This document shows, piece after piece, positions 1 through 58,304 of a DNA stretch of 64,000 nucleotides. The number at the start of each line of letters is the position of its first letter. Position 1 is the first letter of the stretch. This DNA comes from Ginglymostoma cirratum (Eukaryota), in assembly GCA_024137785.1 (NCBI GenBank), contig JAHRHZ010000024.1, positions 25,395,768-25,459,767 on the forward strand, written 5' to 3'. The position numbers were made by a program, and so were the translations under genes. Below the pieces are notes generated by a model. That model had not been told where the DNA came from, made no database searches, and saw only the letters and a list, made by a program, of their open reading frames with translations.

Positions 1-481
1 TTTTACCAATTCAATTTTTTTTTCTTTCTTTATCACTGAATGAGGGCATCACTGATCATGCCAATATTTATTACCCATCGCTGATTGCCCTTTTTAGGTA
101 CCGAAGTTTTGCTTATAAAAATTTACCTCGTGAGTCAGCGGCCTACTTGATTCGAGCGGTGGGAGTGGTGACAGCGCGAGACATGAAGTGAACTATTTTA
201 TTCGGGCATTGTCTAAACCTGAAACACTACACGTGTAGTGTCTCCCATCCATCCTCATCCTCTAACCAAAAAAAAAATTCGGTGTGGAGAGCCGGTAACG
301 TAAGGTAAGGTAAGGCTTTTGTTTTCCTTTATTCTTTTGGTAATCTAGAGTAGAGGGATTTTTTTTTATTTTTTTGCTTTTTCTTTGGCGGAAAGCTGTT
401 GGAGGGAGGAAAGTATCAACAAATTTAATTAACGCATTGTAATAAATTATATAAATTAATAAAGTGATTAACTAAGTAGAA

Positions 482-1450
482 ATGGCTGGACAGTTGATGT
501 GTTGTAGCTTTATGATGTGGAAGCTGGCTGATCCCATTGCGAACTGCAGTGACCACATCTGCAGCAAGCGTTGGTTGCTTGAGGAACTTCGGCTCAGAGT
601 TGATGAGCTGGAATCGGAGCTTCAAGCACTGCAGCACATCCAGGAGGGGGAGAACTACCTGGACACTTTGTTTCAGGAGGCAGTCACACCTGGTAGATTA
701 AGTACTTCAAATTTGGTCAGTGGCCAGGGACACCAGGGTGTGACTGTAAGCGAGGCCGGTAGAGGGATTCTGCAGTCAGGAACAGAGGAGCCTCAGCTCT
801 TGATCTTGTCCAACCGGTACGAGGTACTTGCTCCCTGTGTGGATGAGGAAAAGGGCTGCAGAGAGGATGAGCCAACTGCCCACTGCACCGTTGTACCGGA
901 GGCCATTCAAGAGGGGGGAGCAAAAAGACAAGTGGTAGTTGTAGGAGATTCTATAATTAGGGGGATAGGGATAGATAGTATCCTTTGTAAGCAGAATCGA
1001 GAGTTCCGCATGGTGTGTTGCCTGCCCGATGCCAGGGTAAGGGATATCTCAGACCGGCTTGAAAGTATATTGGAGCGGGAGGGGGAAGATCCAGTTGTTG
1101 TGGGCCACGCCAAATTAAACAACATTGGCAAGACTAGGAAAGAGCACCTGTTCAGAGACTATCAGGACCTAGGAACCAAATTAAAGAACAGGTCCTCAAG
1201 GGTTATAATCTCCGGACTACTACCTGAGCCACGTGCTAATTGGCATAAGAGACATGAGAATAATGGAAGTAAACACGTGGCTAAAAGAGTGGTGCGGGAA
1301 AGAGGGGTTCCTTTTCTTGGGGCACTGGCATCAGTATTGGAACCGGAGGGATCAGTACTTTTGGGACGGTCTCCGCCTGAATCGAGCTGGGACCAATGTT
1401 CTAGCGAAAAAGGTAAATAGACTGGTCAACAGGACTTTAAACTGGAAAGT
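482..1450 (+). pseudogene. CR1 ORF1p: degenerate zinc finger + leucine zipper + SGNH/GDSL esterase domain, frameshifted near 1250
   Basis: N-terminal Cys cluster (CCSF...HICSK), heptad LEELRLRVDELESELQAL, and esterase block I VVVVGDSIIRG. It continues in the 1233-1508 frame as ...WLKEWC...FWDGLRLNRAG (DGLH-type block). Confidence 0.88.
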
Positions 1451-1657
1451 TGGGGGGGGGAAGGGAAGGATGAAACTTGCCCCAGTGGGAAACAAAGCAG
1501 CAGGTTAACGTCTGTAGTGGTGGATTCAAATAAGTGAAAAAACATGACACAAATGACAGGGAAGGAGAACTCAGGAGATGCTATTAAAGTCTCCAGCGCA
1601 GACACGAATAGAACAGAGTGTTTGGAAAGGCCTAGCAATTGAACCCTGGAAAAATGA

Positions 1658-4386
1658 ATGAAAATGAGAAGAGGGAGGGTTAATACAGGACTAAAGGTGT
1701 TATATCTGAATGCACGCAGTAAAAGCTATAAGGTAAATGAGCTTGTGGCGCAGATCGATACTGGTAGGTATGATGTGGTAGGCATCACGGAGATGTGGCT
1801 GCAAGGGGATCAGGATTGGGTGCTGAATATCCAAGGATTTACATCCTATCGAAAAGGTAGGCAGGTGGGCTGAGGGGGAGGGGTTGCCTTATTAGTGAGA
1901 AATGAAATTAAATCAATAGGAAGAAATGAAGTACGGTCAGATGGTGTAGAATCTCTGTGGGTAGAATTGAGGAACCACAAAGGTTAAAAAAACCATAGTT
2001 GGAGTTGCGTACAGGCCTCCAAACAGTAGTCTGGTGCTGGGGCGCAAGATACACCAGGAGATAGAAAAGATGTGTAAGAAAGGCAAAATCACAGTGATCA
2101 TGGGGGATTTCAATATACAGGCTGACTGGGAAAATCATGTCGGTAGTGGATTGCGAGAAAAGGAGTTTGTGGAATGTCTACAAGATGGCTTTTCGGAGCA
2201 GGTCATGGTAGAGCTCACAAGGGAACAAGCAATACTGGATTTATTGTTGTGCAATGAGGCAGGCTTGATAAGGGAGCTTAAGGTAAAGAAACCCTTAGGA
2301 GGCAGCGATCATAAGATGATAGAATTTAGTCTGAAATTTGAGAGGAAGAAGATAGACTCAGAGGTAAAGGTATTACAGCTGAATAAAGGCAACTACAGAG
2401 GTATGAAGGAGGAGCTGGGCAGCATTGACTGGAAGAGGAGCCTAGCAGGAAAGACAGAGGAACAGCAATAGCAGGAGTTTCTGGGAGTAATTCAGGAGAT
2501 GCAGCTAAAATTCATCTCTAGGAAAAAGAAGCATGGTACAGAGAGAATGAGGCAACCATGACTGATAAAGGAAGTCAGGGATAGCATAAAAGCAAAAGAG
2601 AAAGCATATAATGTGACAAAGGGCAATGGGAAACCAGAGGACTGGGAAGCTTACAAAGACCAAGAGAGGGCAACAAAAAAAGAAATAAAGAGGGAGAAGA
2701 TTAAATATGAGGGTAAGCTAGCCAGTAATATAAATGAAGACTGTAAGAGTTTATTTAGATATATAAAGGGCAAGAGAGAGGCAAAAGTGGACATTGGACC
2801 ATTGGGGAACGACGATGGGGAGATAGTAATGGGGAACAAGGAAATGGCTGAGGAACTGAATAATCACTTTGCGTCAGTCTTCACAGTGGAAGACATGTGT
2901 AATCTCCCAAAAATTCAAGAGAGTCAGGGGGCAGAACTGATTATGGTGGCCATCTCCAAGGAAAAGGTGCTAGTAAAACTGATTGGCCTCAAGGTAGATG
3001 AATAACCTGAACCAGATGGACTACACCCCAGAGCTCCAAAGGAGATAGCTGAAGAGACAGTGGAAGCATTAGTGGTGATCTTTCAGGAATCGCTTGAGTC
3101 AGGGAGGGCCCCAGCAGACTGGAAAATCGCTAATGTGACACCCCTGTTTAAAAAGGGAATAAGTCAAAAGACAGAAAATTACAGGTCAATTAACCTAACC
3201 TTGGTCGTGGGTAAGATTTTGGAGTCCATTATAAAGGATGAGATTTCTGAATATTTGGAACTGTATGGTAAAATAGGGCAAAGTCAGCATGGTTTCATCA
3301 AGGGGAGGTCATGCCTGACAAATCTGCTAGAGTCCTTTGAGGAAATAACGAGCACGGTAGACCAAGGAGAGCCAAGGGATGTTATCGACCTGGACTTCAA
3401 AAAAGCCTTTGACAAGGTGCGGCACAGGAGGCTGCTGTCTAAAATAAGGGTCCATGGTGTTCGAGGCAAGATGCTAGCATGAATAGAAGATCGGCTGTCT
3501 GGCAGAAAGCAGAGAGTGGGGATAAAAGGGCCTTTCTCAGGATGGCAGCCAGTGACAAGTTGTGTTCCGCAAAGGTCAGTATTGGGAACACAACTTTTCA
3601 CTTAATACATTAATGATCTAGATGAAGGAACTGTGGGCATTCTAGCTAAGTTTGCAGACAATACAAAGATAAGTGGAGGGACAGGTAGTATTGAGGAGGT
3701 GGGGAGGCTGCAGAAGGATTTGGACAGATTAGGAGAGTAGGCAAAGAAGTGGCAAATGGAGTACAACGTGGGAAAGTGTGAGCTCATGCACTTTGGTAAG
3801 AAGAATAAAAGCATGGACTATTTTTTTAAATGGGGACAAAATTCAGAAGTCTGAAGTGCAAAAAGACTTGGGAGTTCTATCCAGGATTCTCTCAAGGTAA
3901 ACTTTCAGGTTGAGTCAGTAATTAGGAAGGCAAATGCAACTTTGGCAGGAAGGATATACTGGCCCTGGAGCAGGTTCAGAGGAGGTTCACAAGAATGGTC
4001 CCACGCATGAAAAGCTTAACATATGAGGAACGTTTGAGGATTCTGAGACTATACTCATTGGAGTTTGGAAGGATGATGGAGGATCTAATTGAAACTTCCA
4101 GAATACTGAATGGCCTGGACACAGTGGATGTTGGCAAGTTGCTTCCATTTGTAGGATAGACTAGGACCCGAGGGCACAGCCTTAGCGTAAAGGGGAGACC
4201 TTTTAGAACGGAGATTAGGAGAAACATCTTCAGCCAGAGAGAGGTGAATCTATGGAATTCACTGCCACAGAGGGCAGTGGAGGCTGGGTCATTGAGTACA
4301 TTTAAGACTGATATAGATAAGTTCTTGATTATCAAGGGGATCAAGGGTTACGGGGAGAAAGTGGGAGAAGGGGGTTGAGGAACTTA
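1658..4386 (+). pseudogene. CR1 ORF2p apurinic endonuclease-reverse transcriptase, multiple stops and frameshifts
   Basis: LYLNARS, GITEMWL, MGDFN and GSDH (APE motifs). WKIANVTPLFKKG, QHGF, LDFKKAFDKV, PQRSVLG and FADN (RT motifs). Confidence 0.93.
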
Positions 4387-8770: not shown

Positions 8771-10146
8771 GACCAACTTGTGCTTAATTATGTGATTAAG
8801 AGGGCAGAATTAGAAGAGTGTAAAAATATTGAAGGATTGAATAACTGGTGGAGATTACAGAGATGAGGAGGGAACTTTGTCACAGATACAGAATGTCATT
8901 TCTGACTTTGTGAAAAGCTGTTTTAGTACTTTGGCAGCAGCAGAAACTTGATTAGGGAATTTTAAGCTGTCAACAAAAGGACAACGTAAACAGTGGAATT
9001 TGGAAGTTGGGTAGTGTTCTGCTGAAATCTCAATAGTTTCATTTACTATGGTCAGATAAGCCAATAACATTAAATAATCATGCTGTACCTTAAGATCAGA
9101 TTATCATCTTAGGTCACATGAATTTCAAATCGATTCCAAATTCAACAACAAGTAAACAGAAATTAATTTACAACAAAAGCAGGACAAAGGCAGGTAGAAC
9201 AAAATTATTTGCTTAGCTCTAATTATGGACTAATAAGATGTGAATGCCCTTAACAGACTCTGTCGGCTCTTTGAAATCCGACCTCCTTATGTTTGAATTT
9301 GTTTAAGTGCATCATTAGTATCTACAAACAAGTTAGAATCGCATTTACGAAGTGTGCCTTTTTAAGAAAGCTGAAATTCCTTTTGTGAAGAAGATATTTT
9401 GTAATTTATTTGCATAGAGGTTAAAGTTTATTAAATAACTTTAAAATGCCTCTGCTATCTGGAAAAACCATCAAAACCAAAATGTGATCCAAACTGAATT
9501 ATTTAACAGCCAGTTGATGAACCAAATTTACCGGTGTATTGTACAAGAGTTAACTTACTATATCCAAGTCCAACCTTTGTATTAATTAGATCAATGCCAA
9601 TTTAATCAAGCTTGTCACTTGGCTGGTTTGCTTTGCAGCCTCCAAAACACTTTTAATCTGGATAGACATAAAAGTCTCTCAGGAAGCTAGCTTCTCTTGG
9701 GAATTTACTCTTTACTATTGATTTTCTGCCTCTACATTATCCTTTGTCTCTAACAGGTTCTCAGACGTATTTCCATCTTCATTAGAAAATATGGAAGTTT
9801 AATTTCAGATAAGAAAATGAAAAGATCTTGACTATTTTGCTTTTAAAATTCTAAGCTTTTAAAATTGCTGTATATCATATAAGTTTTCTTTTCCTTGAAC
9901 ACAAATAGACTGCATGCTTTTGCAAAATAGTTGGACATTAGTCAATTGTCAAACCTTGTTTTCTCAGCGCATAAGGTGATCCTTCAATCCTTCGTGTCTT
10001 TATTAGGAAGTCATGAGTATTCTATAAATTTTGCATTCTGGTCAGTATAGTTCTTGTTTCTAAATTTGTTTATATTGTCAAAACATTCATTCAAAGCTTT
10101 AATGGTTTATGATAAGCAGGCAATATTCTCAAACTTACTTGAGATA

Positions 10147-10380
10147 TAAAAACAGGAATTGCTGGAAAAGCTCAGCAGGTCTGGCAGCATTTGTGAAGAG
10201 AAATCAGAGTCTGCGTTTTGAGTCCAGTGACCCTTCCTCAGAGCAGACCTGAGGAAGAGTCACCTGACCTGAAATGTTAACTCTGATTTCTCTTCACAGA
10301 TGCTGCCAGACCTGCTAAGCTTTTCCAGCAACTCCTGTTTTTGTTTCTGATTTACAGCAACTGCAGTTCTTTTGGTTTTT
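10147..10380. mobile_element. Penelope-like pseudo-LTR inverted pair (palindromic hairpin)
   Basis: ~95-bp arms aaaacaggaattgctggaaaagctcagcaggtctggcagcat... and ...atgctgccagacctgctaagcttttccagcaactcctgtttt. A degenerate hammerhead core CTGAGGA...GAAATGTTA lies near the centre. Confidence 0.75.
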
Positions 10381-11202: not shown

Positions 11203-12045
11203 TCAGAGATAGTAGGAACTGCAGATGATGGAGAATCTGAGATAACAAGGTATAGAGCTGCATGAACACAGCAGGCCAAGCAGCATCAGAGGAGCAGGAA
11301 AGCTGACGTTTCGGGCCTAGACCCTGCTTCAGAAATGGGGGAGGGGAAGGGGGTTCTGAAATAAATAGGGATAGAGGGGGAGGCGGACAGAAGATGGATA
11401 AAGGAGAAGACAGGTGGAGAGGAGAGGAGACAGACAGGTCAAAGGGGCTGGGATGGAGACAGTAAAGGTGAGTGGAGGTGGGGAGTTAGGGAGGGGATAG
11501 GTTAGTGCAGGGAGGACCAACAAGTCAAGGGGGCAGAATGAGGCTAGTAGGTAGGAGATGGGGGTGGGTCTTGAGGTGGGAGGAAGGGATAGGTGGGAGG
11601 AAGGACAGGTTAGGGAGGCAGGGACAAGTTGGGCTGGTTTTCAGATGTGGTAGGGGGACAGGGGAGATTTTGAAGCTTGTGAAGTCCACATTAATACCAT
11701 TGGGCTTCAGGTTTCCCCAGCGGAATATGAGGTGCTGTTCCTGCAACCTTTGGGTGGCATCGTTGTGGCACTGTAGGAGGCCCAGGATGGACATGTCATC
11801 TGAGGAATGGGAAGGGGAGTTGAAACAGTTCATGATTGGGAGGTGCAGTTGTTTAGTGTGAACTGAGCGTAGGTGTTCTGCAAAGCGGTCCCCAAGCTTC
11901 CGCTTGGTTTACCCGATGTAGAGGAGGCCACAACAAATACAGTATACCACATTAGCAGATGTGCAGGTGAACATCTGCTTGATGTGGAAAGACTTCTTGG
12001 GGTCTGTGATGGGGGTGAGGGGGGAGGTGTGGGGGCAGGTGTAGA
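11203..12045 (-). mobile_element. Penelope-like element 3' part: GIY-YIG endonuclease remnant + pseudo-LTR
   Basis: KKSFHIKQMFTCTSANVVYCICCGLLYIG, then LGDRFAEHL and FNSPSHS...EQHLIFRWGNLKPNGINVDF, followed by a pLTR with a hammerhead motif. Confidence 0.88.
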
Positions 12046-14699
12046 ACCTAGAATACACCTCCTCCCACAGGTCCAGCTGGCTGGCCTCATTACAATCACA
12101 ACTGTTTGAATGTCTACTGTCATGGGTTTCCTTAAGCAACAATTAGTGAACCCCATAGTGAATCAGATGAGTGATGATGGGCAGAATCCTGGCCACCTGA
12201 TCTTTGAAGGATGGCATTCATTCTGTTGCCATATTCTTTAAGGGCAGCTGCTGAGCAAAGTATTATCAAGGCCTGGTAGCCAAAAACACCTAAGTTTCCT
12301 GTGGTATCCCCTGGAAAGGAGACTTGATAACTATTTCACATCTGAACTTGAGAACCTTTGCTTTTAAGCCCGAATACATTGTCGCTATCCTTGATATAAC
12401 AACTGTAGTTTTGGTACTTGTTCCCAACAATGATGTATTATGCATTCACAAGCCAAATCATTTGTAACCCATCCATGTTCATATTTGTGCTTTATGAGGA
12501 TCGTGTAAAATTACTGCGTAATAGTAGTAAAATAGATCTGGGAGTCATATATGGTACTAAACATATTTCCCTTTCTTTCCAGAACTGCAAAAAATTTAAC
12601 ACCCAACAAAGAAAGACATGTCTGCTCAAATTACTAGGTTCAATTTATTTTCAGGTTAAATATTATGCAGAATCCATTATACAGAAATTTGCTAAATCAG
12701 TACAATATATAAAAACAATAAAATTGGAATCAGTTCATCTTGCCTTTAAGTCAAAAAATTATGGATTTGATACCCATTCCAGAAATTTCAACAAATATTG
12801 TAAACCAATACAGGAGTGGAATACTAAGATTCTGAGATTAAAATTCTGTCTACACCCTCAGGTGGATGTAAAGGTGTTATGGTACTAGCTTGAAGAGGAG
12901 GAGAGAAGACATCCTGGCCCGTACTTAACCACTAATCACCAAAAATTTAGTATCTCATCATTTATCACATTTGCTGTGGCCAAATTGCTGCCTTTTTGTA
13001 ATTAATACACTGTATACTTCAAAATCAATTACCAAGTTGTTATAAAAAAAGGTTCTTTCTTTATAAAGGCATCAATAAGACTTTTAAATTAATTTGCAAT
13101 ATCTGTAGTGTTGTAGATATAAATGAGACATCCTGGGTGGTGAATGCAAATTTCATTTCAATTCAGAGTTTCTGTGTCCTGCCAGAAAACAAAGCCTGAA
13201 TTTATTCAGTTTAAACATCTAATAAAGCAGATCTGATCATCATCTGTAATTAAAGACATAATGTTATGAAGTTCTTTGTAGAATGCTGATTAGCAGGCGC
13301 TCATGATTTACCTAGTTTCTAAATATCTATTATTCCTTAGCAACATGCAAGTTATTTCACATTAAGAATAAAGCCCAAAACCTGACTAATTTCCAGATCA
13401 ACGCATCTAATTCAAAGTTGTAGGTAGGCCATCTCAAATTGTTACTCTCTGTTCTGATCAAGAGCAAACAGATTCCGTCTGAATTCAAAAATTTTCAATA
13501 TTAAAGAAATTTAAGTACTGTCATGGAGTCAAATGGCTGGATTTTCAAATAGTTTCCCCCAATAGCCCTTAGAGCTGGTGAGTGGGATTTTCATCTTCTG
13601 GAGGATCGCAAGGCTCGAAGGTGAGTCTGCATCCAGAGGCAGCAGGCATGAGGTGGAGATGGGATGTTGGCTGTTAACAAAGTGCACAGTTTAAAAAGGC
13701 CAACATCCATCCACACAATCAATGGCCCACTTCTTCAGATCAGACCATAGCCTCACCTTGCCTCTCAATGCTTTCATCTGCTGCATTAATCCTTTAACTC
13801 AAACCCCCTTCAATCTCCAGTCCCCCGAGATCTTTTGCAAAAAATAAATGAGCACCCAGACATCTGTCTAAGCTTTCAAGAAGCCAAAAAAAAGGTTGAT
13901 CTCTTTAAACAATTATCTTCAGATATAACAGTGGACCAACTTTTCAGTATTGTACAAAACACAATAGCAGTTTATCCAGTGGATACATTAGTCTAATGAA
14001 TCTGAAAACATTTTGACGTATACAATGCAGTGTTTTTTCTTACTTTGCAGCTTGACTGCTGACATAAATATCGAATAACACCCACGTTTTATTACGGATA
14101 CTTACAATTTCCAGTCACAGCACTATAATTACAGATTTTTGTACTCACAGATATAAACCAGACTTCTGCATTTCATGATGAACTGAAAGGAAGCAACATC
14201 AGTTGTACACAAGTTTTACATTTGTCCACTTTCAGAAAATGGTCCAAATGTCCACTGAGCAAGTTTGATTTCAGAAGCAACTGCCGTGTTGAAAATCAAA
14301 GTTCTGAAATTCTTGCTCCCAGAATGGTGTCTGCAACCTGAAACAGCAGAGTGCAGCATTGCCAACCCTCTCACTTACCTGCTTTCCTGCAAGTAGCTAA
14401 AGATGGAAATGGAGCCTTGACTTCTGCCTTTGTTGCTGAGCAGCCATTTTCTCCTTCCTACTCCTGACTCGGAATTGTCCTAAAATGGGAGTACAAAATA
14501 CTGCTTCTCGAGTCATAGCATCACAGAAGGTAGCCATTGGGTCAATCTAGTCAATACCGGTTTTCTACAGAGAAATCTGATCAATCACTTTAGCCCTGCA
14601 GGTGTATTTCCCTTAAGTGACCGTCTAGTTCCCTTTTGAAATCCATCATTTTCCCCACTTACATCATTGTGGCAGTATAACAATTATTTTTGTAGTCAT

Positions 14700-29866: not shown

Positions 29867-30949
29867 CTGCACTATTCTATTAAGAATCAGCTAAATAATA
29901 AGAACAGTGGCTCGTGGCTAGTTCACACATCTTTGAGTCAGAAGATTGTGAGTTCAAGGTCATTCCAAGAGATGTGTATGAAGACTTGGACTGAGAAAGC
30001 AGTGCAGCACATAGACACAACATTGCTATCGATATGCAGGTCACATAGAATCTTCGGGAAGGTGAAGGAATCCTTCACAGTTTATGCGCAATAATCACTC
30101 AGTTAGAACTGGTTGTATTAATTCACTCAACCATTTAGACAATTCACATTGTGCAGAACTAGTGATATATAAGTTGAGACATAAGGGGTCATCATTTCTG
30201 TGTGTCTTGAGCTATGCATACCTGCATGAATGTTGTGAACCATGACAGTGAATCTTATCACATATACCCCAAGGCACTAACAGGCAGCTATCATCAAGCC
30301 AAAAGGACATGCTGTTCACCACATAACAGTGTAAGTTGGGAGATAAATTTCTGTACCAGTGCAATGCTAAGTACTGAGGTCATACATTCCAAACAGCATG
30401 TACTCAACCAGGTCATGCATAAAAATCTTTAATGTCTGATAGAATATCTAATTTTAAATGTGGTCCTATGATTGGGAAACAATTGTAGAAAATGTGCTCG
30501 GAATTACACTGCTATCCAATTAAAGATTATTAGTTAGGCTTGCAGTATAACTCACTTAAGACTGCAAGAATCTATATATATTCATGCATAGGGCCCAGTC
30601 CTGTACAAGCAAATAAGAGCATATCCAGTCATTGTGCACTTTATGAATTAAGTAAACATTAGGTCCCCTGGGTGCATTTTCCATGTTAATCCCTTAACAA
30701 ATCAGACCTGACTGGCCAACCAATCAACACTTTTTTCTCATGCAATTTGGAATGTTATGTTTTTAGAATTTCAACTATTCCTTGTGTATCCTGATGAGTG
30801 CAAGACAGGAAGCTTCAACACAGCGTGTCTCTTTTGTTCAGCAAAATTCAACTTCTTGGTCCAAACTGGATGACCTCAAAATTATCTGTATTCAATCCCA
30901 GCTGCAACTGTTTTGTCCATTCTCTTATTCCAGGATTTGGGGTAGCAAT

Positions 30950-31150
30950 GGTGAAATAACTGCACAGAGAGCAGTATCCCATCACCAAGTCACCTTTCAT
31001 TTATATGTGCACAGCATATAGACTCTGACCAGCCAGCTCAAAGACAGTCCTAGACTGAGGAGAATGTCTGAATCTCCTGTTTATATGTATTAGCCAGAAC
31101 TCCCCGGTTGGCCCAGATTAATAACCACAATCAATGATCTCATTGTCCTC
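30950..31150 (-). mobile_element. Short solo-LTR-like repeat (same family as 45146-45377 and ~10720-10790)
   Basis: Shared tgaaataactgca.agag..cagtatcc...caagtcacc.ttt motif. Confidence 0.55.
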
Positions 31151-31689
31151 AAAATATACAGCAGGGCTTCATAAACAGTGGGGCATGATCCTCTCCCTCC
31201 ATTGGCATGATAGGCTAATATTTTGGAGTTACAAGCTCCAAGGCAGCAGTGGCCTCTTTAAATTCTCACCATTGCTTTTCAATAGATTGAGTGACTTAAC
31301 TGAGCGAACTTTGAAAACTCGTTGCTGGTCTCTGTGGGGAGTAATTGCTTTCTCACTTTTTTATGAATGTATCAGCTTTGCCTGACTCCCCTGCATACAC
31401 AGGTCTCTCATCGCTTGCCTACTGCCTGCATGGACCCCACCCCTCCTGCTGAGATATCTCGCTCACCCCCTCCCACATTCTTGCAATCTCAAGGCTCTCA
31501 GTGTCTCCACATAATCTCCATGCCCCCACCTACTTTCACAGCTTCCCTTACCCTGCCCCTGTGCACTGTCACAGTTCTCCACCACCTCACTCTCACGGGA
31601 CTCCCCCCACCCCTGCAACTCTATCCATAGCCCTCATCACATCTGGCCTTGCCACCTCTCCCCAGTCTCACTGGTCTTGGGGGTACAAC

Positions 31690-34600
31690 AGGAAAAGCTT
31701 TGGAAGCACTGATCCATTGTATTTTACAGAATGTTGACTGTAGGCAACCAAAGGGAGGAATATCCAAATGGTACGTGGCTTGATGAAACTAAAATCTCCA
31801 TGGCTTCTAAAAGAATAAATAAATCCGAAGCAATTTGTCAAAAATTCATAGAGGATTTGGAAGCTTGCATGATATGGCCCATGCTGCATTATTTTGGAGA
31901 CAGACAGGGAGAAATTGTGTTCAAATATTTGAATGAACTTGAAAGCAAAGTCATCCAAAAGTGGAGCCAGAGAAAGAGCAAGAGCTACTAAGAAAGAGAG
32001 AGAAGGAGAAAAGACAAGATACGCCACTACACTTTTCTTGGGTATAAATGAAACTCAAAATGAAAATTGTTAGAATTATAATACATGAATGATACTTAAA
32101 AGTGCATTTCCAAGTTTTGGTTGTGAAAACAGCTCCTGAATTACTAAACAATGACATCGGCAATTGTTTCATCGCTGTTTTTCTGGTCATTAAATACGTA
32201 GGTTGCTTTAAATCAAAACAGTTCAGTAATGAAGGCTTAATTATACACATTAGATCAGCAGTAGTCTTTATAAACCATTTAATAGAGGACGGCAATTTAC
32301 TTTATGTTGATCAATGACAACAGTCTTGTAGCATAATTAATTCGAAAACTTTCCACCATTCCAGGAGTTAAATCATTGAAGCAAAGTTTTAACCTCCTCC
32401 TGAATGACATCAAATATGCAGACCTACCCATCCATGAAATTCAAAAACTAAGCAATTAGGCACTGTCTTACCTCTGGTAATAACACTAAAGTGTTCAGAA
32501 TTTCAGCAATTTAGCACACATTAGTTCTGCTGCTGGACAACTTAATTTAATATACCTTGCTATAATTAATAGAACATAATTGACTTGAGAAATGTAACAT
32601 ATAAAAGAATACAAGAGTACATTATTTGAAACATTTATCGCCTGGTGCCTTATAAGAATTAGGTTGTTTTTTCTGGTAATAACATAATTCAGAAACATCA
32701 AATTGAAGGGAATCAAGTCATATTCATAATTCTTAAGGTTCACAGTGACAAGATATTTTGTTTGCTTTATAGAATACAAATGCTTTATTACACTGTGGTA
32801 TTGAGTTAATCACTCCGCTGAGTTATCACAGAGAACATGCATCTTCCTAACATTTGGCAACCTCAGCTGAAATGAGATCATTTGCAATAATGGAAAGATT
32901 CAAGCTGGAAGGATTTACTTACAGAAGAGCTGATTCCTATTGTAGTCCAATAGACATGCCCTTCTAACCAGTGATTGCATTGTGGAATTGATAACTGATC
33001 TGTTCTTCCCTCATTATAACGCAGTAATGAGTTTTTGATCTTCAACAAGGTATTTGTGTCTGACGAGACAATACTTATGTTAGCTCCCATAGCATAAAAA
33101 ATAGATGTGCGTAATTTAGTACAGAAATATTTAATAGACTTTTATTACAGTCTGTGGTACCTTCGTATATATTAAAATTATAAGCACTGCAATAGCTGTA
33201 GCACATTTCCCTCAGCATATCATGCTGCAAGTGGCTCCAGTAGATGGAGAACTTTGTAGCATTGGGCCACCAGATTACATGCGATGAAACAGTGTTGATA
33301 TCATGAGCATGTCCCTTAAAGTAACATTGGATCCTACCCGTGAGATATAACGCTGTGGTAGCAGGTATAGTAAAAGTTTTTAACCTTAATTTGGTTTTCA
33401 TTCCCCTTTTCCAGAAAAATCCCGGATATATATTGTTGTACATGGGTGCATGTTATTAATTCAATAATTATGCATACAGGTGAAAACAGAGTTAGCAATA
33501 GTAACAATATAAACTTCGGTATTTTGAAAGTTTGACAACTTGTCCGGATCTGATGACATTATATCCATCAGGAGAGGTAGGTATTATCCTTGGTTGATAA
33601 TCTGATTGCCTTGCTGCTGATTGCTGTCAGTCAACATCATCGCAACAATCACTGTCAGAGTTTTCTTCCTCATTCTCTGCTGCATAATTGCTGAGTCATA
33701 CATCAGCATGAGCTAGCTTCTGTTCCTTTGAAATGAGCATCATGAGCGGTGATTAATTTGTACGATCTGAGCTGGGTGTGTATTTTAGAAACCCTTAATG
33801 TTCGATTATTCTAAACACTATTGAAGTATTTGTGAGTGGATTTCAGACTTGTATTCACTGCTCAGTGTGCAGTTATGGTAGCTTGCTACCTTCTCACTGG
33901 TCAGGCATTTCATTTTCCTCCATTGTTGAAGAATGTCATGTTTCTTGGAATGGTTTAACAGTTGGTTGCTAGGCAAGGTCAGTAACATTTGCCCTCTGAC
34001 CATTGATCAAGCCACCCTTTCTCCTAAAAGTGCATGTTGCACATCATTGAAGGATGAATGAATGAAGTTGCATCATCCTTGAGATGCTTAAAATTGTATG
34101 ATCCTTAAAATTGCTCATCATGTCAAATTTGTTTGGGTACAGTTAATGGAGATTATTGATTATTTTAACTATATTAACACTTGTCTATTCCACCACTATA
34201 GTTGTGGTTCAAATCTCAAAAATTGAGACTGAAATCTGTGCTTGTAGTTCTGCTACGGTTGGACCATTAGTATCTACAAGGGAGAAGACTTTATGAATCA
34301 AGATTAACTTACACATTGGCACTGCAGCGTGATTGTGCCAACGCAGATAATTGCTGATCTACTATATACTGTCTCTTGTAGGTTTAACAAAGGAGCTTGG
34401 AGGGGTACTTATTTTTTTGGATGCATAGTGGTAATATGTTGGCTCAAGCTCTTGTGTTGATTTTGGCTTCCAAGGTGTTTTTGGGGACATACAATACCAC
34501 TGGTTCTAAAAGCTTCTGATCACTTTGTGCCATTGACACAATGTGCAAGATTGACAATATGAAATGCTTGGGCAATTTTGTTTGTTTCTCACTTTGTTGG

Positions 34601-37600
34601 CTCTGAACATCAAAATGGTTCTGCTTGTGCTGTGGACAACTAATCGTTGTATAAAATGTATAAATAAACATAAGTTTTCCGCTTACAATTGCTACTTGCT
34701 GGAATTATGTCTAAACTTATAGAAGTTTAGTAATCACCAGGATTCTTTATTTGTAGGACAACCATAGCTGGACACAAAGAGTGCTGGGATTCTTGATATC
34801 TTATTTAGCTTATGTCAAAGGCCAAGTTGGGGTTACAGATTGTTGGTTAATTGGTTTTTCTTTGTTAGGAATGTATGCCTGCAAACATGGAATTTTTGTG
34901 ATATTTCTGTTTAAGATAAAGTTAATACTGTTGTGCTTATAACATTATTGAATAAGTTAGAATTGTTGTTTATTATTCCTGTGTAATAGATGTTAGGGGA
35001 AACTGGGGACAGATAGGGGGTGTGAATCTTTTCTGTTACAACAAAGCAGATGAGGAAGCAAACAGGGCAGAAAACAGAGCATTCATCAAATCAGGAGAGC
35101 TCTAATGGCACAGTGGTGGTGTTCTTGCCTCTGAGCCAAAAAAGTCCATGTTTAAGTCTCACTTCATTTACAGGTGTGAAATGACACATCTGAACACAGT
35201 GATTAAAAACATCTATAATGAATCGCAAATTCCTAGTCGACAGGTTTAGAGGAAATTGGCCAAATTTGTTGCAAAGACTCTTGAAGGGCTGCTGTAGGTG
35301 GAAATGGACCAGTCGTGGACAGTTGTACCAGAGAATTGAGCCAACTGAAAATATGTATAGGGCAGAGTGGGGAAAGACCTTCTTCAACACAGACTTGTCT
35401 GAACTCAGTGCAATTGCCGCAGCATCTGTAGTTGGCAATCAAAGAACAGCAAAAAGTAGACTGACCACTGACTGTCTTCCTGTATTTCAGGGAAACTAAA
35501 CAATTAGGGCACAGGATGATTGTGGAAGTATTACTTGACTGTACTTAATGTAATTGGGAGTCAAATAAAGGTATAATTGTTTGGCCAAATTCCAAGCTTG
35601 GAGTTATTGATGCGCAGAATATACGCTTGAACCAGACGTTGAGTAGGTACCTGGTGGATATATGGCATAGTGCACATTTCAAATACATCATTTCTGCCAG
35701 TGTTATTGTGTCGTACCACCTTGTTTGTCATTTGTGTTGCCTTCTGAGGTGTAGCTTGGCTTTTGAAACCAGATTCCCTGCATATGCTTGCCCAATGTCA
35801 TTTGGTGTCATATGCTTTGTAGGTGTGAAGAAATGCCAGAGAACTTATGGGTAGATATGACAAAACCACATCGAAGGCAGCTTGTACTGGTTTGGAGCAC
35901 TTTCTTTATCATAGAAATTGTGTTGTCTGCACCGAAAGCATGTAATTGTTACTGGCTTGCTACTGTGACCTCATGCAGGCATCCATCTTCAAGCATGGCA
36001 TCATGATATGGCCTTTTTCCTTAACCAGAAGATCCTTCCTGAAGATGTTAATCATTTGACCCTTCTGACAGTTCTTCTTTAGAGAATTCATACTCATATC
36101 CTTTACCATGGCATCTTACAACAATGCCATCATAGACTCTTGGGATTTCTCTTTGTACGACCTGAGTCGGAGCAGTTTTATCAAAAGAAGATTCTTAACT
36201 CAAGCTAGACTTCAAATGGTCTCCAGATTTTCTATGGATTTTTTTTATCATCAGAAAGATCTGATGTGGTTATTCTGTGAAGTCTCTTGTCACTGATAGC
36301 AAATGATAATTTAAGAGATTGTCTCTTGAGGCCATTTATTACGTGACCTGGGAAGTAAATCTGCATCTGTTGCTTAAAGAGCTGTAACTCACTGAAAATA
36401 TTATTTACTGTACAATCCATTAATAAGTGTTTGCCATTTCTTATTAACAGCTTGCTTTTCTTTTGTATGAAGTAAGTTGTAAACTTGTTTGTTCATTTAC
36501 TTGATTTGCTGTCCCGTTGTTTTTACTTTTCCTTCTTTTGCTTCTATATTATTATTTTTTACTGCTGTAGCCCCTTAGGTGAGTTGTTGATTATTTTGGG
36601 ACTATCTGTTTATGAAATAAATCCTTTATGAATCAACCACTGGAAGGTGTTTGCACCAAATAAGGTATGATGACACATAGCTGCCATCTCGCTTGGCACC
36701 AAATTGAAGAGAGAAAATGATGAAACCAACCAACCTCTGTACAAAAGTAAGCATCCTCAGTTCAGAAAATCACATTGTAATGCTTAAAACTCTGTTTCTT
36801 TTCTCAAACACAGAGATTGTGTTACAAATGAAAGTAGTCTTTGGCTGCTATTTTCTTTTAAATGTTCTATGAAACCTTTTGGAATGCTGTATCTTAACAT
36901 TTAAATTGGGAAACAAGCTGATACTGTATGAACTTCTGACTACTGAAACTTCAAGGAGAAAAGAGTAAGTCATCCACCTGCCTACTTAATTTGCAGACCT
37001 AGTCTTATCTAAACTTGTGCTGTTGGTCTTATAAACGCTTTGAAGTCCAGTCTGCCTAAGCTCCATTTTTTTTATATGTAATTACTGTTTTTTTACTATC
37101 AAGTTGTTATCATAATTTATTCTGCCTCACAATTTGCCACAGATGCAACTATAATCTTTTTACCTTCAACAAAGTATTTGCACATGCTGAGGCAATACTT
37201 ATGTTAGTTCTTGTAGCGTGGAAAGTAGATGCGGGTAACATAGCACTAAAAGATTCAAGACATTTATTACAGCTTTTGATATCTAAATATGTTGCAATCA
37301 TGTCTGAGCTAGTACTGAACAATTTGATTATAAACTGTTTCAGAGATAGTAGGAACTGCAGATGCTGGAGAATCTGAGATAACTAGGTATAGAGCTGGAT
37401 GAACACAGCAGGCCAAGCAGCATCAGAGGAGCAGGAAGGCTGATGTTTTGGGCCTAGACCCAACTGTACTTGCTTTCCTAAGCATGTTGTTCTGCAAGTG
37501 GCCCCAGTAAAATGGAGACTGTGACCGAAATGCCATCAGGTCACATGCTATCATACAGTGATGGTATCATGAGCATGTCTCTGAAAACTATACTAGCTGT

Positions 37601-38900
37601 GAGACACAACACAACAACACCAGTTATGGGAAAATTATTTAATATCAATACCTTTTCCTTGGTTTTCATTGTTCCTCAGTTTACTTCCAATAAAGTGAAT
37701 GCTTTTCTGAGTTGGAAACATCAATTAAATTTCAGGCATTAATAAGATGGATAACAAATTTGTGCTTTCCTGAAACCCGCATTGAGCAAACATTAGGTTT
37801 ATGCAAATGTAAAGTCTCTCATTTAATAAATTCCCTCTTGCCTTTCTCATTTTAAGACCTTGTACCATTAGACTAATATTAGCAACTGCATAATTTCTTG
37901 CACTCTTTCCAGTTGTATTTGGGTAGAGAATTCACTATTGCACAGCAAGTTGTCAGTAAGTCATGTTAACTACTCTCAGTTGTTTTCTAGTGTCTAACCA
38001 AATAATTTCAATGAACTATGCACCATTTACCTCCTGACATGCAATGGCTGTTCCATCCTGTCATCTGAAGAAAGTCTGCAGTCTGGATGGGAGCTTGTTT
38101 ATGTAGGATCCTCCCTTCATCATTAGAGGATTTGGCACGTACACTGTTGCACGTGGCAGTTGCAAGCAATGGACTGTGAAGTCAGTGCACAGACTCCGCG
38201 TTCCCAGTAATTTCTGCCACCTGGACTCCATGTCTCACATTTGTATAGAACCTATGAGGTAGCTGCCCCATGTCCATTAATTGTGGAGGCTGTCTTCAAC
38301 TTCTGGCTGCACCTCAGTTACGCACTTCTGATCTTTAGTCTCCCAGAGTGGTAAGAGAGTGGGAGGATCCTGGACCTAGTTGACCTGGTCATTGATAGGT
38401 CCAGGCGGTCTGTGATGACTAATTTGGTCTAACTTGTTTCTTTTGTCTGGCTACATCCATGCCTGGCAATCCATCAGAGGGTCAGCAAGTCTCCTCTGGA
38501 ACACATGAAGCCTTCGTGAGTGGACACTTTAGGGACTGGAGTCCTTCATCACCATTGAGAATATACTTTAAATTGAATAATGAAGAGTATTTAAAATTTG
38601 AAATACACACTGGTTGGAAGCTCATAAATTCTCATTTCATTCAGATATACATTTAAGTTTCATTTTAATATGATGACTAATGTTAATGAATGTTGTGCTG
38701 GAATGCATGCTGAATTTGCAGAGGATATTTTTTTCAAATTCAGCATTGGGCTTTGGATTTATATTCTGAGAGCTGGAGTAAGGATTGGTTTTCTCAACTG
38801 TATGTTTGTTTGACTGGATTTATGCTTGAATGAAGAACGGCACATGAGAGTTTGGGATGCTTGAGGAAACTGGAGTCACCAGAGAAGGTGTGAAGTTTGC
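31690..38900 (-). other. Unclassified AT-rich island of decayed coding-like sequence (ancient transposon or endogenous virus candidate)
   Basis: Several CxxC pairs, an H-x7-H-x28-C-x2-C motif, an acidic stretch, a hydrophobic segment and an internal diverged duplication. It contains only two recognisable short insertions. Confidence 0.4.
37339..37461 (-). mobile_element. Truncated Penelope pseudo-LTR insertion
   Basis: Near-identical to 11203-11325; flanked by an aactgt duplication (37333-37338 and 37462-37467). Confidence 0.85.
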
Positions 38901-39469
38901 CAAAAGCTAATTAGCAAGCAGACTTCACCACAGTCACCAGTCCTGGGGCAGCACATAATTACTCTTGTGGCTGTTTTCCTTTTGTGCAGTGCCCTGTCTC
39001 CATTGTTTGCTCGAGGAGCATTAATCAATGAGAATTTCTTCTTCTTGCCTCAATTTACTGCAGTCCTCTTTCTCTCCAGCAGAGACTCTCTAATGTACCT
39101 AAACAGTAGACTTAACCAATCTTTTTGTGCATTGTGGAGGGGTGGAGGGCAGAGTGCAATTTTTCTCTCATCAAGGGAAGAATGAGCAAATTTCAGAAAT
39201 TTGAGGTTTGGCACAACAGAAGATGTATTCCAGAGTAATACATTGATTAATTAAATAAATTATTGAATTAAAATGGCCATCAAAAAAGTGCCAAGCAACA
39301 GAGCTAACTAATAGAATATTTCCTTGACACCTCGCTTAAGAAGCAAAACTAGAAAGAGACAGACTAAACCCCAGGTCCAGGAAAGGGAGTGGGGACTGAG
39401 ACTAAGCTAATGATTTGAGTTTAGCTGACAGTGACCTTGCATTCACCACTAGTGGCACACACACACAAG

Positions 39470-42400
39470 AGAAGGTGATGGCCTCGTGGTATTATCATTA
39501 GAACATTAATCCAGAAATTCAGCTAATGTTCTGGGGACCTGGGTTTGAATCCCACCACGACAGATGGTAGAATTTGAATTCAATATAAAATTCTGGAATT
39601 AAGAATCTACTGTTGACCATGAAACCATTGTGGATTTTTGGGAAAAAGCCCATCTGGTTCACTAATATCCTTCAAGGAAGGAAATCTGCCATCCTCATCT
39701 GATCTGGCCTTACACGCAACTCCAGATCCGCAGTAATGCAGTTGACTCTCAATTGCCCTCTGAAATGGCCTAACAGTCAATTCAGTTGTAGCAATCATTA
39801 CAAATTCTCAAAGAAATGAAACTGGACGGATCACCTGGCGCCGACCTAGGCACTGGAAAAGACAAAGCAGAAACAGCCCTGTTGACCGTGCAAAGTCCTC
39901 CTTACTAACATCTGGCAGTTAGTGCCAAAATTGGGAGAGCTGTCTCACAGACTAGTCAAGCCACAGCCTGACATAGACATACTCATGAAATCATACCTTA
40001 CAGACAATGTCCCAGACATCACCATCACCATCCCTGGATATGTCCTGTCCCACGGACAGGACAGACCTAGCACAGTGGCATACAGTCAGGAGGGAGTTGT
40101 CCTGGGAGTCCTCAACTTTGACTCCGGACCTCTTGAAGTCTCATAGCTTCAGGTTAAATATGGGCAAGGAAACCGCCTGCTGATTACCACATTCCATCCT
40201 CCGTCAGCTGATGATTCAGTACTCCTCAATGTTGAACACCACTTGGGAGGAAGTACTGAGGATGGCTTGGGCACAAAATGTACTCTGGGTGGGGGATTTC
40301 AATGTCCACCTCTAAGAGTGGCTCAATAGCACTACGACAGGTCAAGCAGGTTGGGTCCTAAAGGACATAGCTGCTAGATTGGGTCTGCAGCACATGGTGA
40401 GGGAATCAACAAGAAGGAAAGACATACTTTACCTCTTCCTTACCAATCTGCCAGCTGCAGATGCACTTGTCCATGACAGTAATGTTAAGATGAACAACAA
40501 CACAATTCTTGTGGAGACAAAGTCCTGCCTTCACATCAAAAATAACCTCCATTGAATTGTGTGGCACTATCACCATGCGAAATGGGATAGACTTCAAACA
40601 GATCTAGCAACTCAAGACTGGGCATCCATGGAGGTGTTTTTGGCCATCAAAAGAAGCAGAATTGTACTCCAGCACTATCTATAACCTCATGGCCCGGCAT
40701 ATCCCCCATTCAACCATTACTATCAAGCCGGGGGATTAACCCTAGTTCAGTGGAGAGTGCAGGAGCGCATGCCAGGAGCAGCACCAGGCATACCTGAAGA
40801 TGAGGTGTCAACCTGGTGAAGCCACCAAACAGGACTACTTGCACATCAAACAGCATAAGCAGCAAGTGATAGACACAACTAAGTGAGTCCACAACCAATG
40901 GATCAGATCTAAGCTCTGCAGTCCTGCCACATCCAGTCATGAACGGTGGTGGACAATTAAACAACTCACCGGAGGAGGAGACTCCATAAATACCCCATCA
41001 CCAATGATGGAAGAGCCCAGTGCATCAGTGTAAAAGATAAGGCTGAAACATTCGCACCCTGTGGGGAGGTGATGGCCTAGATGTATTATCGCTGGACTAT
41101 TCATCCAGAGATCCAGATAGTGTTCTGGGAATCCGGGTTGGAATGTCGCCACGGCAGATGGTGAAATTTGAATTCAATAAAATATCTGGAATTAAGAATC
41201 TAATGATGACCATGAATCCGTTGTCGATTGTCAGAAAAACCCAACTGGTTTACTAATGTCCTTTAGGGGAGGAAACTGTCATCCTTTCCTGGTCTGGCCT
41301 ACATGTGACTCCAGATCCACAACAATGTGGTTGACTCTCAACTGCCTTCTGGGCAATTAGGGATGGGCAATAAATGCTGCCTGGCCACCGATGCTTTCAT
41401 CCCATGAATGATTAAAGACAAAAAAAGCAATCTTCAGCCAGGAGTGCTGAGTGGATGATCCAGCTTGGCCTCACGCAGTGGTCCCCAGTGTCACAGATAC
41501 CAATCTTCACGCAATTTGCTTCACTCCACATGATATCAAGAAACAGTTGGAGACAGTCAATACTGCAAAGGCTACAGGCCCTGACAAGATTCTGGCAATA
41601 GTGCTAAATACTTGTGGCCCAGAACTTGCCACTCCCCTAACCAAGCAGTTCCAGTACAATTAGAACACTAGCATCTATCCGACAATGTGGAAAATTGCCC
41701 AGGTATGTCCTGTACATAAAAAACAAGACAAATCCAACCGGGCCAATTACTGCCCCATCAGTCTATTCTTGATCATCAGTAAAGTGATGGAAGGTGTCAT
41801 CAACTGTGCTATGAAGCAGCACCAGCTCAACAATAACCTTCTCAGTGATGCCCAGTTTGGGTTCCATGAGGGCCACTCAGCTCCTGACCTCATTATAGCC
41901 TTGGTTCAAACATGGATAAAAGAGCTAAATTCCAGAGGTGAGTTGAGAGTGGCAGTCCTTGACATCAAGAATGGATTCGACCGAGTGTGGCATCAAGGTG
42001 CCCTAGCAAAACTGGAAACATTGGGTATCGGGGCAAACTCCGGTGGTTAGACCTATACCTGACACATAGGAAGATGGTCGTGGTTGTTGGAGGTCAATCA
42101 TCTCAGCTCCAGGAAATCTCTGCTGGAGTTCTACAGGGTAGTGTCCAAGGTCCAAATATCTTCAGCTGCTTCATCAATGACCTTCCCTCCATCATAAGGT
42201 CAGAAGTGGGGATTTTCTCCAATGATGGCACAATGTTCAGCACCACTCACAACTCTGCAGATATTGAAGCAGTCCATGTCCAAATGCAACAAGATCTGGA
42301 CAACATCCAGGTTTAAGCTGACAAGTGGCAAGGAACATTCGCACCATATAAATGCCAGGCTATGACTATCACCAATAAGAAACAATCTAACGACTGCCCC

Positions 42401-43112
42401 TTGACATTCAAAGGCATTACCATCATGAATTTCCAACTATCAACACCCTGGGGGTTATCATTGACCAGAAAGTCAACTGGACTCGCCACTTAAAGTCAGT
42501 GGCTACAAGAGTAGGTCAGAGGCTAGGAATATTGCGACGAGTGACTCACCTCCTGATTCTCCAAAGCCTGTCCACTATCTACAAGGCACAAGCCAGGAGT
42601 GTGATAGAATACTCCCCACTTGCCTGGATGAATGCAGCCCCAACTGTACTCAAGGAGCTTGACACCATCCAGGACAAAGCATCCCATTTGATTGGCACTA
42701 CATCCATAAGCTTCCACTCCCTCCACCACCAACACTCAGCAGCAGCAGTGTATACTATCTACTAGATGAACAGCAGAAATTCACCAAAGATCCTCAGACA
42801 ACACCTTCCAAACGCACAACCACTTCCATAGAAAGGACAAGGGCAGCAGCCTTTTGAGAGCACCATCTTCAAGTTCCCCTCCAAGCAACTCACCATCCTG
42901 ACTTGGAAATATATCACTGTTGCTTCACTGTTGTTGGATCAAAATCCTGGATTTCCCTTCCTAATGGTATTGTGGATCAACCCACAGCTGGTGGACTGCA
43001 GCAGTTCAAGAAGATAGCTCACCAACGCCTTTTCAAGGGCAAATAGGGACAGGCAATAAATGCTGGCCCAGCCAGCAACTCCCACATCCAACAAATGAAA
43101 AACTAAAAACAA
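39470..43112 (+). mobile_element. CR1/L2-group LINE with a tRNA-like 5' head, a single decayed APE-RT ORF and no ORF1
   Basis: tRNA-like head at 39470-39560. APE: VPKLGELSHRLVKPQPDI, GDFNVH. RT: WKIAQVCPVHKKQDKSN, LDIKNGFDRVWHQG, GVLQGSVQGP...FINDLP. 3' tail gggacaggcaataaatgctggccc. Confidence 0.88.
41062..41427 (+). mobile_element. tRNA-derived SINE nested inside its partner LINE
   Basis: Interrupts the LINE ORF (…acattcgca | gcaatcttcagcc…). Its head matches 39470-39765 and its tail matches ~43038-43100. Confidence 0.85.
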
Positions 43113-53486: not shown

Positions 53487-53600
53487 TGAGATAACAAGCA
53501 TGGGGCTGGATGAACACAGCAGGTCAAGCAGCATCATAGGAGCAGGAAAACTTGACGTTTCGGGCCTAAACCCTTCATCAGAAATGCATTTCTGATGAAG
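53487..53600. mobile_element. Penelope pseudo-LTR with an intact hammerhead core (minus strand, 53554-53581) and the start of an inverted copy
   Basis: Perfect palindrome cttcatcagaaatgcatttctgatgaag running into the gap. Confidence 0.85.
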
Positions 53601-54000
53601 NNNNNNNNNNNNNNNNNNNNNNNNNNNNNNNNNNNNNNNNNNNNNNNNNNNNNNNNNNNNNNNNNNNNNNNNNNNNNNNNNNNNNNNNNNNNNNNNNNNN
53701 NNNNNNNNNNNNNNNNNNNNNNNNNNNNNNNNNNNNNNNNNNNNNNNNNNNNNNNNNNNNNNNNNNNNNNNNNNNNNNNNNNNNNNNNNNNNNNNNNNNN
53801 NNNNNNNNNNNNNNNNNNNNNNNNNNNNNNNNNNNNNNNNNNNNNNNNNNNNNNNNNNNNNNNNNNNNNNNNNNNNNNNNNNNNNNNNNNNNNNNNNNNN
53901 NNNNNNNNNNNNNNNNNNNNNNNNNNNNNNNNNNNNNNNNNNNNNNNNNNNNNNNNNNNNNNNNNNNNNNNNNNNNNNNNNNNNNNNNNNNNNNNNNNNN
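53601..54000. other. Assembly gap (400 N)
   Basis: Run of N. Confidence 1.
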
Positions 54001-55844: not shown

Positions 55845-56935
55845 AGAACTTAGAACACTACAGCGCAGTACAGGCCCTTCGGCCTTCGATGTTGCACCGA
55901 CCTGTGAAACCAATCCGAAGCCCATCTAACCTACACTATTCCATTATCATCCATATGTTTATCCAATGACCATTTAAATGCTCTTAAAGTTGGCGAGTCT
56001 ACAACTGCTGCAGGCAAGGCATTCCATGCCCTTACTACTCTGAGTAAAGAATCTACCTCTGACATCTGTCCTATATCTATCACCCCTCAATTTAAAGCTA
56101 TGTCCCCTCGTGCTAGCCGTCACCATCCAAGGAAAAAGGCTCTCACAGTCCACCCTATCCAATCCTCTGATCATCTTGTATGTCTCTATTAAGTCACCTC
56201 TTAACCTTCTTCTCTCTGATGAAAACAGCCTCAAGTCCCTCAGCCTTTCCTCATAAGACCTTCCCTCCATACCAGGCAACATCCTGGTAAATCTCCTCTG
56301 CACCCTCTCCAATGCATCCACATCCTTCCTATGATGCGGTGACCAGAACTGCACGCAATACTCCAAGTGCGTCTGCACCAGAGTTTTGTACAGCTGCAAC
56401 ATGACCTCATGGCTCCGAAACTCAATCCCTCTACCACACACCGAAAGCCTTCTTAACAACCCTATCAACCTGGGTGGCAACTTTCAGGGATCTATGCACA
56501 GGGACACCGAGATCTCTCTGCTCGTCTACACTACCAAGAATCTTACCGATAGCCCAGTACTCTGTATTCCTGTAACTCCTTCCAAAGTGAATTACCTCAC
56601 ACTTTTCCACATTAAACTCTATTTGCCACCTCTCAGCCCAGCTCTGCAGCTTACCTATGTCCCTCTGTAACCTGCAACATCCTTCCACAACTATCCACAA
56701 CTTAGTGTCATCTGCCAATTTACTAACCCATCCTTCTATGCCCTCATCCAGGTCATTTATAAAAATGACAAACAGCAGTGGCCCCAAAACAGATCCTTGC
56801 GGTACACCACTAGTAACTGAACTCCAAGATGAACATTTCCCATCAACCACCACCGTCTGTCTTCTTACAGCTAGCCAATTTCTGATCCAAACCGCTAAAT
56901 CACCCTCAATCCCATGCCTCCAAATTTTCTGCAAT
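55845..56935 (-). mobile_element. 5'-truncated, relatively young CR1 LINE
   Basis: SGVPQGSVLGPLLFVIFINDLD, KLADDTKL and LEYCVQFWSP...ALERVQRRFTRMLPG. Confidence 0.93.
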
Positions 56936-58304
56936 TGTAATTGATAAAAATCTTGTTGATTTTTCTACTAAGATGTTAGGTTAAAGGCTGTGTCCTGTCC
57001 CCTTTTTCAGATTCTGGTCCACTTAATAATTCCATTATTATCGGTCATTTGGTAAGATAGAACTTGAGTATTGCTGAAATAAGATACATTGAGAGTTGTC
57101 CATTTCTTGCACTCAGGATATTTCACAAGAGTACAAATTCAAGGCAAAAATAAAAATGCATGAGGGAAGAGTACAGATTGGTTGGTAAAGGCTTTGCCAC
57201 TGAGAAAGCACTCAATCATTCTACAGATAGAAAGTTTTGACAAAATGTGATTTTTTTTCACCAATATTACAATAGTACAGTTTGGTTCAATATCCTTCAG
57301 GGAGGGAAGCTGCCATCCTTACCTGGTCTGGACTACATGTGACTCCAGACCCACTGCAATGTGTTTGACTCTTAAGTGCCCTCTGGGATCGGCAATAAAT
57401 GCTGGCCTAGCCAGCCAGCTCTCATTCTGTGAATAAGTAAGAACAACATTGAGAGTAGAAGCAACATGAGAAAACTATGGTTCCAGAATTATGAATTTTT
57501 TTTTATGGCAAACTGTCAGTATTCAACATCATTACCCTATTGTGTTTGACTGTAACTTTGGATGTCGCATGAGCAAATGAAAATGGGATACCTAAAGTCA
57601 TGGTCTCTCACCTACTGCTCTGCCATGAGCAATAGTATAATGACGCTCCTAAAATGGCAGGAATACCCCCTTCTCTGCCATCATATCATAGCATATAGCT
57701 ACCACTGAACAGCACCTTTGGTTCTGAAAACAAAATCTTTACCAGTCCCTTGGAAAAAAATGACATCTGCCAGGGGGGAGAAAGAGAAATAAGATGTTGT
57801 TAAATATTTCTACTTTGAGTAATCATTAGATTTCATTTGTTTTTGAAAGGTAGAATGAAAGAATAGAACAATAGTGTGGTTAGAAAACTAAATAACGATA
57901 TTCAGCCATAGATCTGTGCTAGATCTCTGCAACAGTAGACTAACTAGTCCCATTCCCTCAACCTTTCATTGTAGCCCTGTAGTTTTGTTCCCTTTAAGCA
58001 TTCCTTTTGATATCCATGAATGAATCTACCTCCCAACCACCTTCACAAGAAGAAATTACAGATTAGCATCTGTTAAAACTTTTTTAAAATTCTATCACCT
58101 TTGGTTATTTCAACAATCTGCCCTCTGGTTCATGACCCATCAGCCAATGGGAAGGTTCTCCACATCTATTCAGATCCTTCATGACTTTGAATACCTCTAC
58201 TGAATCTGTTCTCAAGCTTCCCTATTTTCAGCAGTACAGCCTTGCTTTCTCCAATCTATCCAGGTCACTGAAGTCTGTTATCACTGGAATTGTTATGGTG
58301 ATTT

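Follow-up and report, generated by a model that had tools for sequence, protein, structure and literature searches.

Features of the locus

The window, by which we mean the whole stretch of 64,000 nt of Ginglymostoma cirratum DNA analyzed here, contains an element of about 4.65 kb at positions 33017–37668. It is found on the minus strand, between two direct repeats. The initial annotation had treated a larger block of 7 kb (31690–38900) as one old, decayed mobile element. Such an element is supported, but the repeat pair and the depth profile limit it to 4.65 kb: The flagged 7 kb are not a single unit. The features of the region are the following:

31690..33005, no strand: flank, outside the element (from depth in a related species and stop and CxxC statistics)
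33017..33400, minus strand: downstream direct repeat, similar to a 3' LTR, about 384 nt, outer end accurate to about 15 nt
33401..33412, minus strand: polypurine tract of 12 nt, followed immediately by the TG that opens the downstream repeat
33420..35088, minus strand: likely remnant of an envelope gene, in many pieces (comparison by eye, unscored)
35089..35215, plus strand: older short insertion
35250..36050, minus strand: likely remnant of an integrase, interrupted by stops and shifts of frame (suggestive, not significant)
36050..37123, minus strand: 5' internal part, presumably a leader with possible gag or RNase H remnants, depth about 2x that of the flank
37124..37141, minus strand: possible decayed primer-binding site (weak, agreeing at 11 of 18 bases with the site of 15 retroviral genomes)
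37139..37668, minus strand: upstream direct repeat, similar to a 5' LTR, which begins TGAAAACCAA and is interrupted by an insertion similar to a SINE, inner end accurate to about 15 nt
37332..37461, plus strand: later short high-copy insertion, SINE-like, within the upstream repeat and flanked at either end by AACTGT
37669..38900, no strand: flank, outside the element (from depth in a related species and stop and CxxC statistics)

Both flanks, 31690–33005 and 37669–38900, have flank-level depth in the related species and neither a stop nor a CxxC signal, so we place them outside the element. The left flank has a stop-free frame of 92 codons at 31713–31988 on the plus strand, also with flank-level depth in the related species, no Pfam match above the cut-off and no usable Atlas match. 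At 38000–38400 on the minus strand there is a stretch that by eye resembles the Myb/SANT-like frame of Harbinger-type elements in decayed form, with no Pfam match.

The block had been described as matching no local repeats apart from two short insertions, at about 35095–35215 and 37339–37461. Both insertions are real: The first one (35089–35215) has 63–67% identity to four local copies and the second one (37332–37461) has 85–95% identity to local copies. What was overlooked is a direct repeat inside the block, which window self-comparison places at 33033–33402 and 37157–37670. Self-matches are also missing from many of the window's other 1-kb bins, so their absence here is not unusual.

The direct repeats as likely long terminal repeats

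The two repeats behave like LTRs, and the overall anatomy is that of an LTR element. When the insertion at 37332–37461 is left out of the alignment, they are 72% identical (263 of 365 aligned columns), with a K2P distance of 0.36 (0.29–0.45). On the minus strand the similarity starts in both copies at a common TG, TGAAAACCAA, and both have an AATAAA signal 130 nt from the end; five of six natural LTRs used for comparison have a signal 77–179 nt from the end. The purine run has 12 nt before the downstream repeat and 2 nt before the upstream one, and runs of at least 11 nt are found at only 12 of the 5128 TG sites of the minus strand. The junction between tract and TG resembles those of five class I retroviruses (L185, L186, L192, L195 and L196). 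The match to a primer-binding site, with 11 of 18 bases, is weak: It is equaled by 3.5% of random 41-nt windows, and it is the best of five sites tried (p about 0.035). Terminal inverted repeats were not found, the best candidate having 42 nt and an E value of 0.14. Taken as a whole, the locus is very likely an LTR retroelement.

An exact target-site duplication of 4–6 nt was not found with 30 trial ends, which gave only candidates with one mismatch; it may have decayed. The far end of the repeats is not sharp, with no clear CA end, though TG begins both copies. The lack of a target-site duplication and the large divergence of the pair would also be expected of two independent insertions from a single repeat family, solo LTRs for instance, 4.1 kb apart around unrelated sequence, or of a recombinant of two elements, and the window does have other direct-repeat pairs of 150–380 nt within 12 kb. 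Such an arrangement is nevertheless quite improbable: In the related species the depth is raised across the interior but not beyond the repeats, and only the downstream copy has a purine tract, on its inner side.

The same locus in a related species

Contigs of a related species, from four runs of four studies, were aligned to positions 30000–40000 at 80% likeness. In two of these runs a single contig covers 31108–37357, with 268–270 differences in 6.2 kb (about 4.3%), which means that the element is continuous with its flank in the related species as well. Over nine bins of 31336–33005 and 37682–39017, flank depth is flat in the four runs (9–23). Summed contig depth on 33006–33339 is 465, 415, 555 and 338, that is, 22–29x the flank; it is a proxy and not a copy number, and the upstream repeat is unreadable owing to the SINE. 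Interior bins free of insertions reach 1.4–5.6x the flank depth (run X1). By this proxy the repeat greatly exceeds the interior in abundance in all four runs, as would fit solo LTRs outnumbering interiors. Other copies of the interior exist in the related species, as confirmed by two to six distinct contigs per run at 34342–34547.

If the repeats are a true pair, they have diverged about eight times as much as the two species have from each other, which places the insertion long before the species split. We give no absolute date: The substitution rate assumed in PMC4422223, 2.2e-10, would lead to about 800 million years, which is impossible.

Coding signal and protein motifs

All the motifs of the initial annotation are present on the minus strand:

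35929–35940, minus strand: CFRC
35868–35879, minus strand: CLRC
35665–35676, minus strand: CALC
35500–35511, minus strand: CPNC
35410–35430, minus strand: YRCCGNC
35374–35388, minus strand: VEEGL
35058–35072, minus strand: FCPVC
34536–34556, minus strand: HHCC-like motif, CQSCTLC
33630–33677, minus strand: acidic stretch ENEEENSDSDCCDDVD
33454–33513, minus strand: hydrophobic run FILLLL...ELI, a predicted membrane anchor
32968–32988, minus strand: IPQCNHW, outside the element

They belong to two different frames, and IPQCNHW is outside the element, so the initial observation is confirmed in part. With the acidic stretch and the HHCC-like motif, the envelope region was probably read out of frame.

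The minus strand of 33401–37137 contains ten CxxC motifs, the highest value of 16 segments (z 3.7 against dinucleotide shuffles). Depletion of stop codons does not set the segment apart: z is –2.0 on the minus strand, and control segments reach –3.1 and –3.2. In addition, the most open stretch of 270 codons is equaled by 85 of 200 shuffles.

No search gave a significant protein match in the interior. Pfam, with six whole frames and 66 pieces, gave only weak matches below the cut-off, its sensitivity on decayed frames being low. Among them is DUF7140, on the CCGNC stretch in the 35410–35430 region of the minus strand (E 0.0009, 19.6 bits, cut-off 27). PHROGs gave nothing usable and searches of PDB sequences nothing relevant. 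The frame with CLRC, FCPVC and ENEE had no matches among 1.84 billion representatives or in a homology search, the homology search with the CPNC frame retained none of 312 candidates, and the Atlas had no usable match for 33337–33558. A single-sequence fold of 35158–36048 has a pLDDT of 35.5 and is left out of consideration here. Both Rfam matches are under the gathering score.

A stop depletion within the range of control segments, and Pfam results with only DUF7140, below cut-off, among the weak matches, are also what old non-coding sequence with protein-like motifs by chance would give. We find this highly improbable as an account of the locus, considering the repeat pair, the purine tract and the depth profile.

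DNA transposons of the Ginger and KDZ type

The initial annotation had suggested a KDZ/Zisupton or Ginger-like transposon. KDZ/Zisupton elements combine CxC clusters, a KDZ transposase core and SWIM/Ulp1 domains. There is no Pfam match here to CxC, KDZ, SWIM or Peptidase_C48, although Pfam likewise missed everything else in these frames. The Ginger1 transposase has the layout YPYY-H2C2-DDE-GPY/F. The likeness to Ginger1 would be an enzyme of the integrase family; Ginger1 elements are described in PMC2836005 with terminal inverted repeats of 40–270 nt, CCGG or CCGT targets and OTU or Ulp1 tails, whereas the element here has direct repeats and none of those features. A C-terminal OTU or Ulp1 domain was not found with Pfam or with an OTU profile.

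The reading of the repeat as a duplicated OTU-type protease domain would go together with such a transposon. It has in its favor the CxxC enrichment and the fact that both repeat copies align to the OTU profile (16 sequences) in the same register. Their scores, 23.0 and 19.5, are nevertheless background (23.0 on the plus strand), and the substitutions between the repeats lack codon periodicity (45 against 44.3 expected, p 0.44), so we have rejected the OTU domain. The repeat is also far more abundant than the interior, and inverted repeats are absent. A Ginger1 or KDZ/Zisupton transposon is thus largely refuted and very improbable; neither name is supported: There are no terminal inverted repeats, integrase and OTU profiles are at background and Pfam, with its low sensitivity on decayed frames, gives no match.

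Among metagenome contigs, seven (L026, L024, L025, L037, L051, L059 and L074) contain Ginger1-like integrases in pieces, and L026 also has a downstream OTU domain.

Integrase-like stretch and 5' interior

Natural reference sequences were scored across frame breaks against controls. With a profile of 21 natural retroviral integrases, the best match in the whole window, both strands included, is 35983–35851 (26.0 bits, the next one 23.1), where CFRC, HN and LP align with the last part of the zinc finger of these integrases. This score is not significant: It is reached by 3 of 50 shuffles, and by 10 of 50 and 7 of 50 with two smaller sets. The same stretch ranks first among 1623 ORFs with hmmsearch, with an E value of only 0.27, and in glocal scoring it is the best of the window in only three of six settings and is equaled by 2–14 of 60 shuffles. 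Downstream, PQSS (35525) and GLSP (35379) are 48.7 codons apart, and in three references the distance is 48. The spacing from CxxC to PQS, by contrast, is 138 codons, against 117–121 in the 21 integrase references. An integrase remnant at about 36050–35250 is suggested but not demonstrated by these results.

The element might also belong to an LTR group other than retroviruses, for instance of gypsy/BEL type or non-autonomous; its interior would then hold no envelope gene, and the hydrophobic run would be due to chance. All the LTR evidence fits this equally well, there is no significant Env match, and the best minus-strand match of a gypsy/Ginger integrase profile (72 sequences) is inside the element, on the HHCC-like motif (34562–34524). 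But its 22.6 bits are background, with 22.2 and 22.0 elsewhere, and tblastn and tblastx with 120 integrase loci gave nothing on the island; the Ginger integrase reading of the interior was rejected on the same background score. The class I-like junction of tract and TG and the best match of retroviral integrases, which is further upstream, also speak against this alternative, which we regard as unlikely.

A reverse transcriptase was not found, protease–RT scores being at background. Since reverse transcriptase, the basis of formal classification, and a target-site duplication were sought and not found, we have filed the element as ERV-like, in no named group. An RNase H seen by eye at 36570–36300 was discarded: Its score is background (43 of 100), and the search of PDB sequences gave nothing relevant.

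Envelope-like region

The hydrophobic segment at 33454–33513 includes the 19 residues with the highest hydropathy (2.74) of all three minus frames in the interior. About 40 nt separate its end from the purine tract, which is the place where the anchor of an Env protein would sit. Gamma-type Env proteins have an ISD followed by CX6CC (PMC9967133). This signal is absent here: Eight natural TM subunits score 14–18 in the region against 20–26 elsewhere in the window. Scores with Env of eight gamma-type viruses, the L142 retrovirus, eight foamy viruses and one epsilonretrovirus are within those of controls.

An envelope group without ISD and CX6CC, as is the case here, is the Ovex1/GGLTR11 group as described in PMC2717909. 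Eight anchors, chosen by eye, post hoc and unscored, appear in order against residues 472–829 of Ovex1 ORF3, over 328 codons here and 357 there. As window position and chicken residue, they are 34503/472, 34431/492, 34338/519, 34195/567, 34017/643, 33975/657, 33664/781 and 33519/829. Two of the intervals agree within one codon (48 and 14), two are longer by four codons, two are shorter by 17–20, and the last is equal overall (48). No Ovex1/GGLTR11-type proteins turned up in searches of sequence collections. Provided that the element is derived from an endogenous retrovirus and keeps an envelope remnant, the chances are about even that the stretch 34503–33519 represents an Ovex1/GGLTR11-type envelope.

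Origin of the element

We consider that 33017–37668 is probably a dead, internally deleted endogenous retrovirus, unusually old, with a remnant of its envelope gene. An endogenous virus was the last alternative of the initial annotation, and for the 4.65-kb element it is supported. The order of parts would be a 5' LTR, a leader with little or no gag, pro or RT, an integrase remnant, an envelope remnant with its anchor, a polypurine tract and a 3' LTR. As in retroviruses in general, reverse transcription of an RNA copy, with the second strand primed at the purine tract, would have been followed by germ-line integration, the two LTRs being identical at that time. Most of gag, pro and RT would have been lost before or after the insertion: A copy without reverse transcriptase may have lost it later or may have been mobilized by a complete relative. 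Most members of the family would have been reduced to solo LTRs, and all copies would have decayed neutrally afterwards, this one receiving two later insertions and presumably encoding no working protein today.

Comparison with known retroviruses

The element resembles class I (gamma/epsilon-like) retroviruses in its junction of purine tract and TG, in LTR length, in the position of the poly(A) signal and, though not significantly, in a stretch that aligns to the last part of their integrase zinc finger. Unlike them, it has no ISD/CX6CC Env signal and no reverse transcriptase, and its interior has only 3.7 kb. Avian Ovex1 ORF3, GGLTR11 and TERV would share with it a gene similar to an envelope gene near the 3' end, with a membrane anchor, a short tail and neither ISD nor CX6CC, and TERV is also described as a two-LTR element without Pol (PMC2717909). 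On the other hand, the by-eye match is about 8% shorter than Ovex1, and the remnant here is in pieces and preceded by an integrase-like stretch, while Ovex1 keeps open frames and is expressed, according to the same source.

Endogenous retroviruses of cartilaginous fish are already described, and decayed ERV-like elements are common, so the element is ordinary in kind. The CmiERVs of the elephant shark have also been dated by LTR divergence, but those reported are complete, with 9.5–10 kb and LTR divergences of 0.024–0.033, compared with 0.36 here (PMC4422223). One of them, on scaffold-2, has an ISD-type Env motif, which we have read by eye from its DNA (PMC4422223).

It is possible, though on balance doubtful, that the element represents a lineage of cartilaginous-fish retroviruses in which an integrase and LTR similar to those of class I were combined with a non-gamma envelope of the Ovex1/GGLTR11 type, described from birds. 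It would be preserved here as an insertion with paired LTRs, older by a factor of about eight than the split of the two species compared. This envelope type would then be pushed back to early jawed vertebrates, and if the envelope assignment holds, a poorly studied type of envelope would be extended to a very early vertebrate branch. Screens based on Pol or RT, such as those described in PMC4422223 and PMC10699275, would miss a heavily decayed family without reverse transcriptase. Our literature search, with Repbase, Dfam and most subscription journals outside its scope, gave no paper on an Ovex1/GGLTR11-type envelope in sharks, and the family may already be catalogued.

Other features of the window

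An assembly gap of 400 N at about 53600–54000 adjoins a SINE copy. Long frames at 476–3600, 41664–42765 and 55974–56964 resemble pieces of LINE ORF1 and ORF2, and frames at 11500–12160 on the minus strand resemble the end of a Penelope-type GIY-YIG endonuclease. A near-perfect hairpin is found at 10142–10348, with arms of 100 nt, 85% complementary and 7 nt apart.
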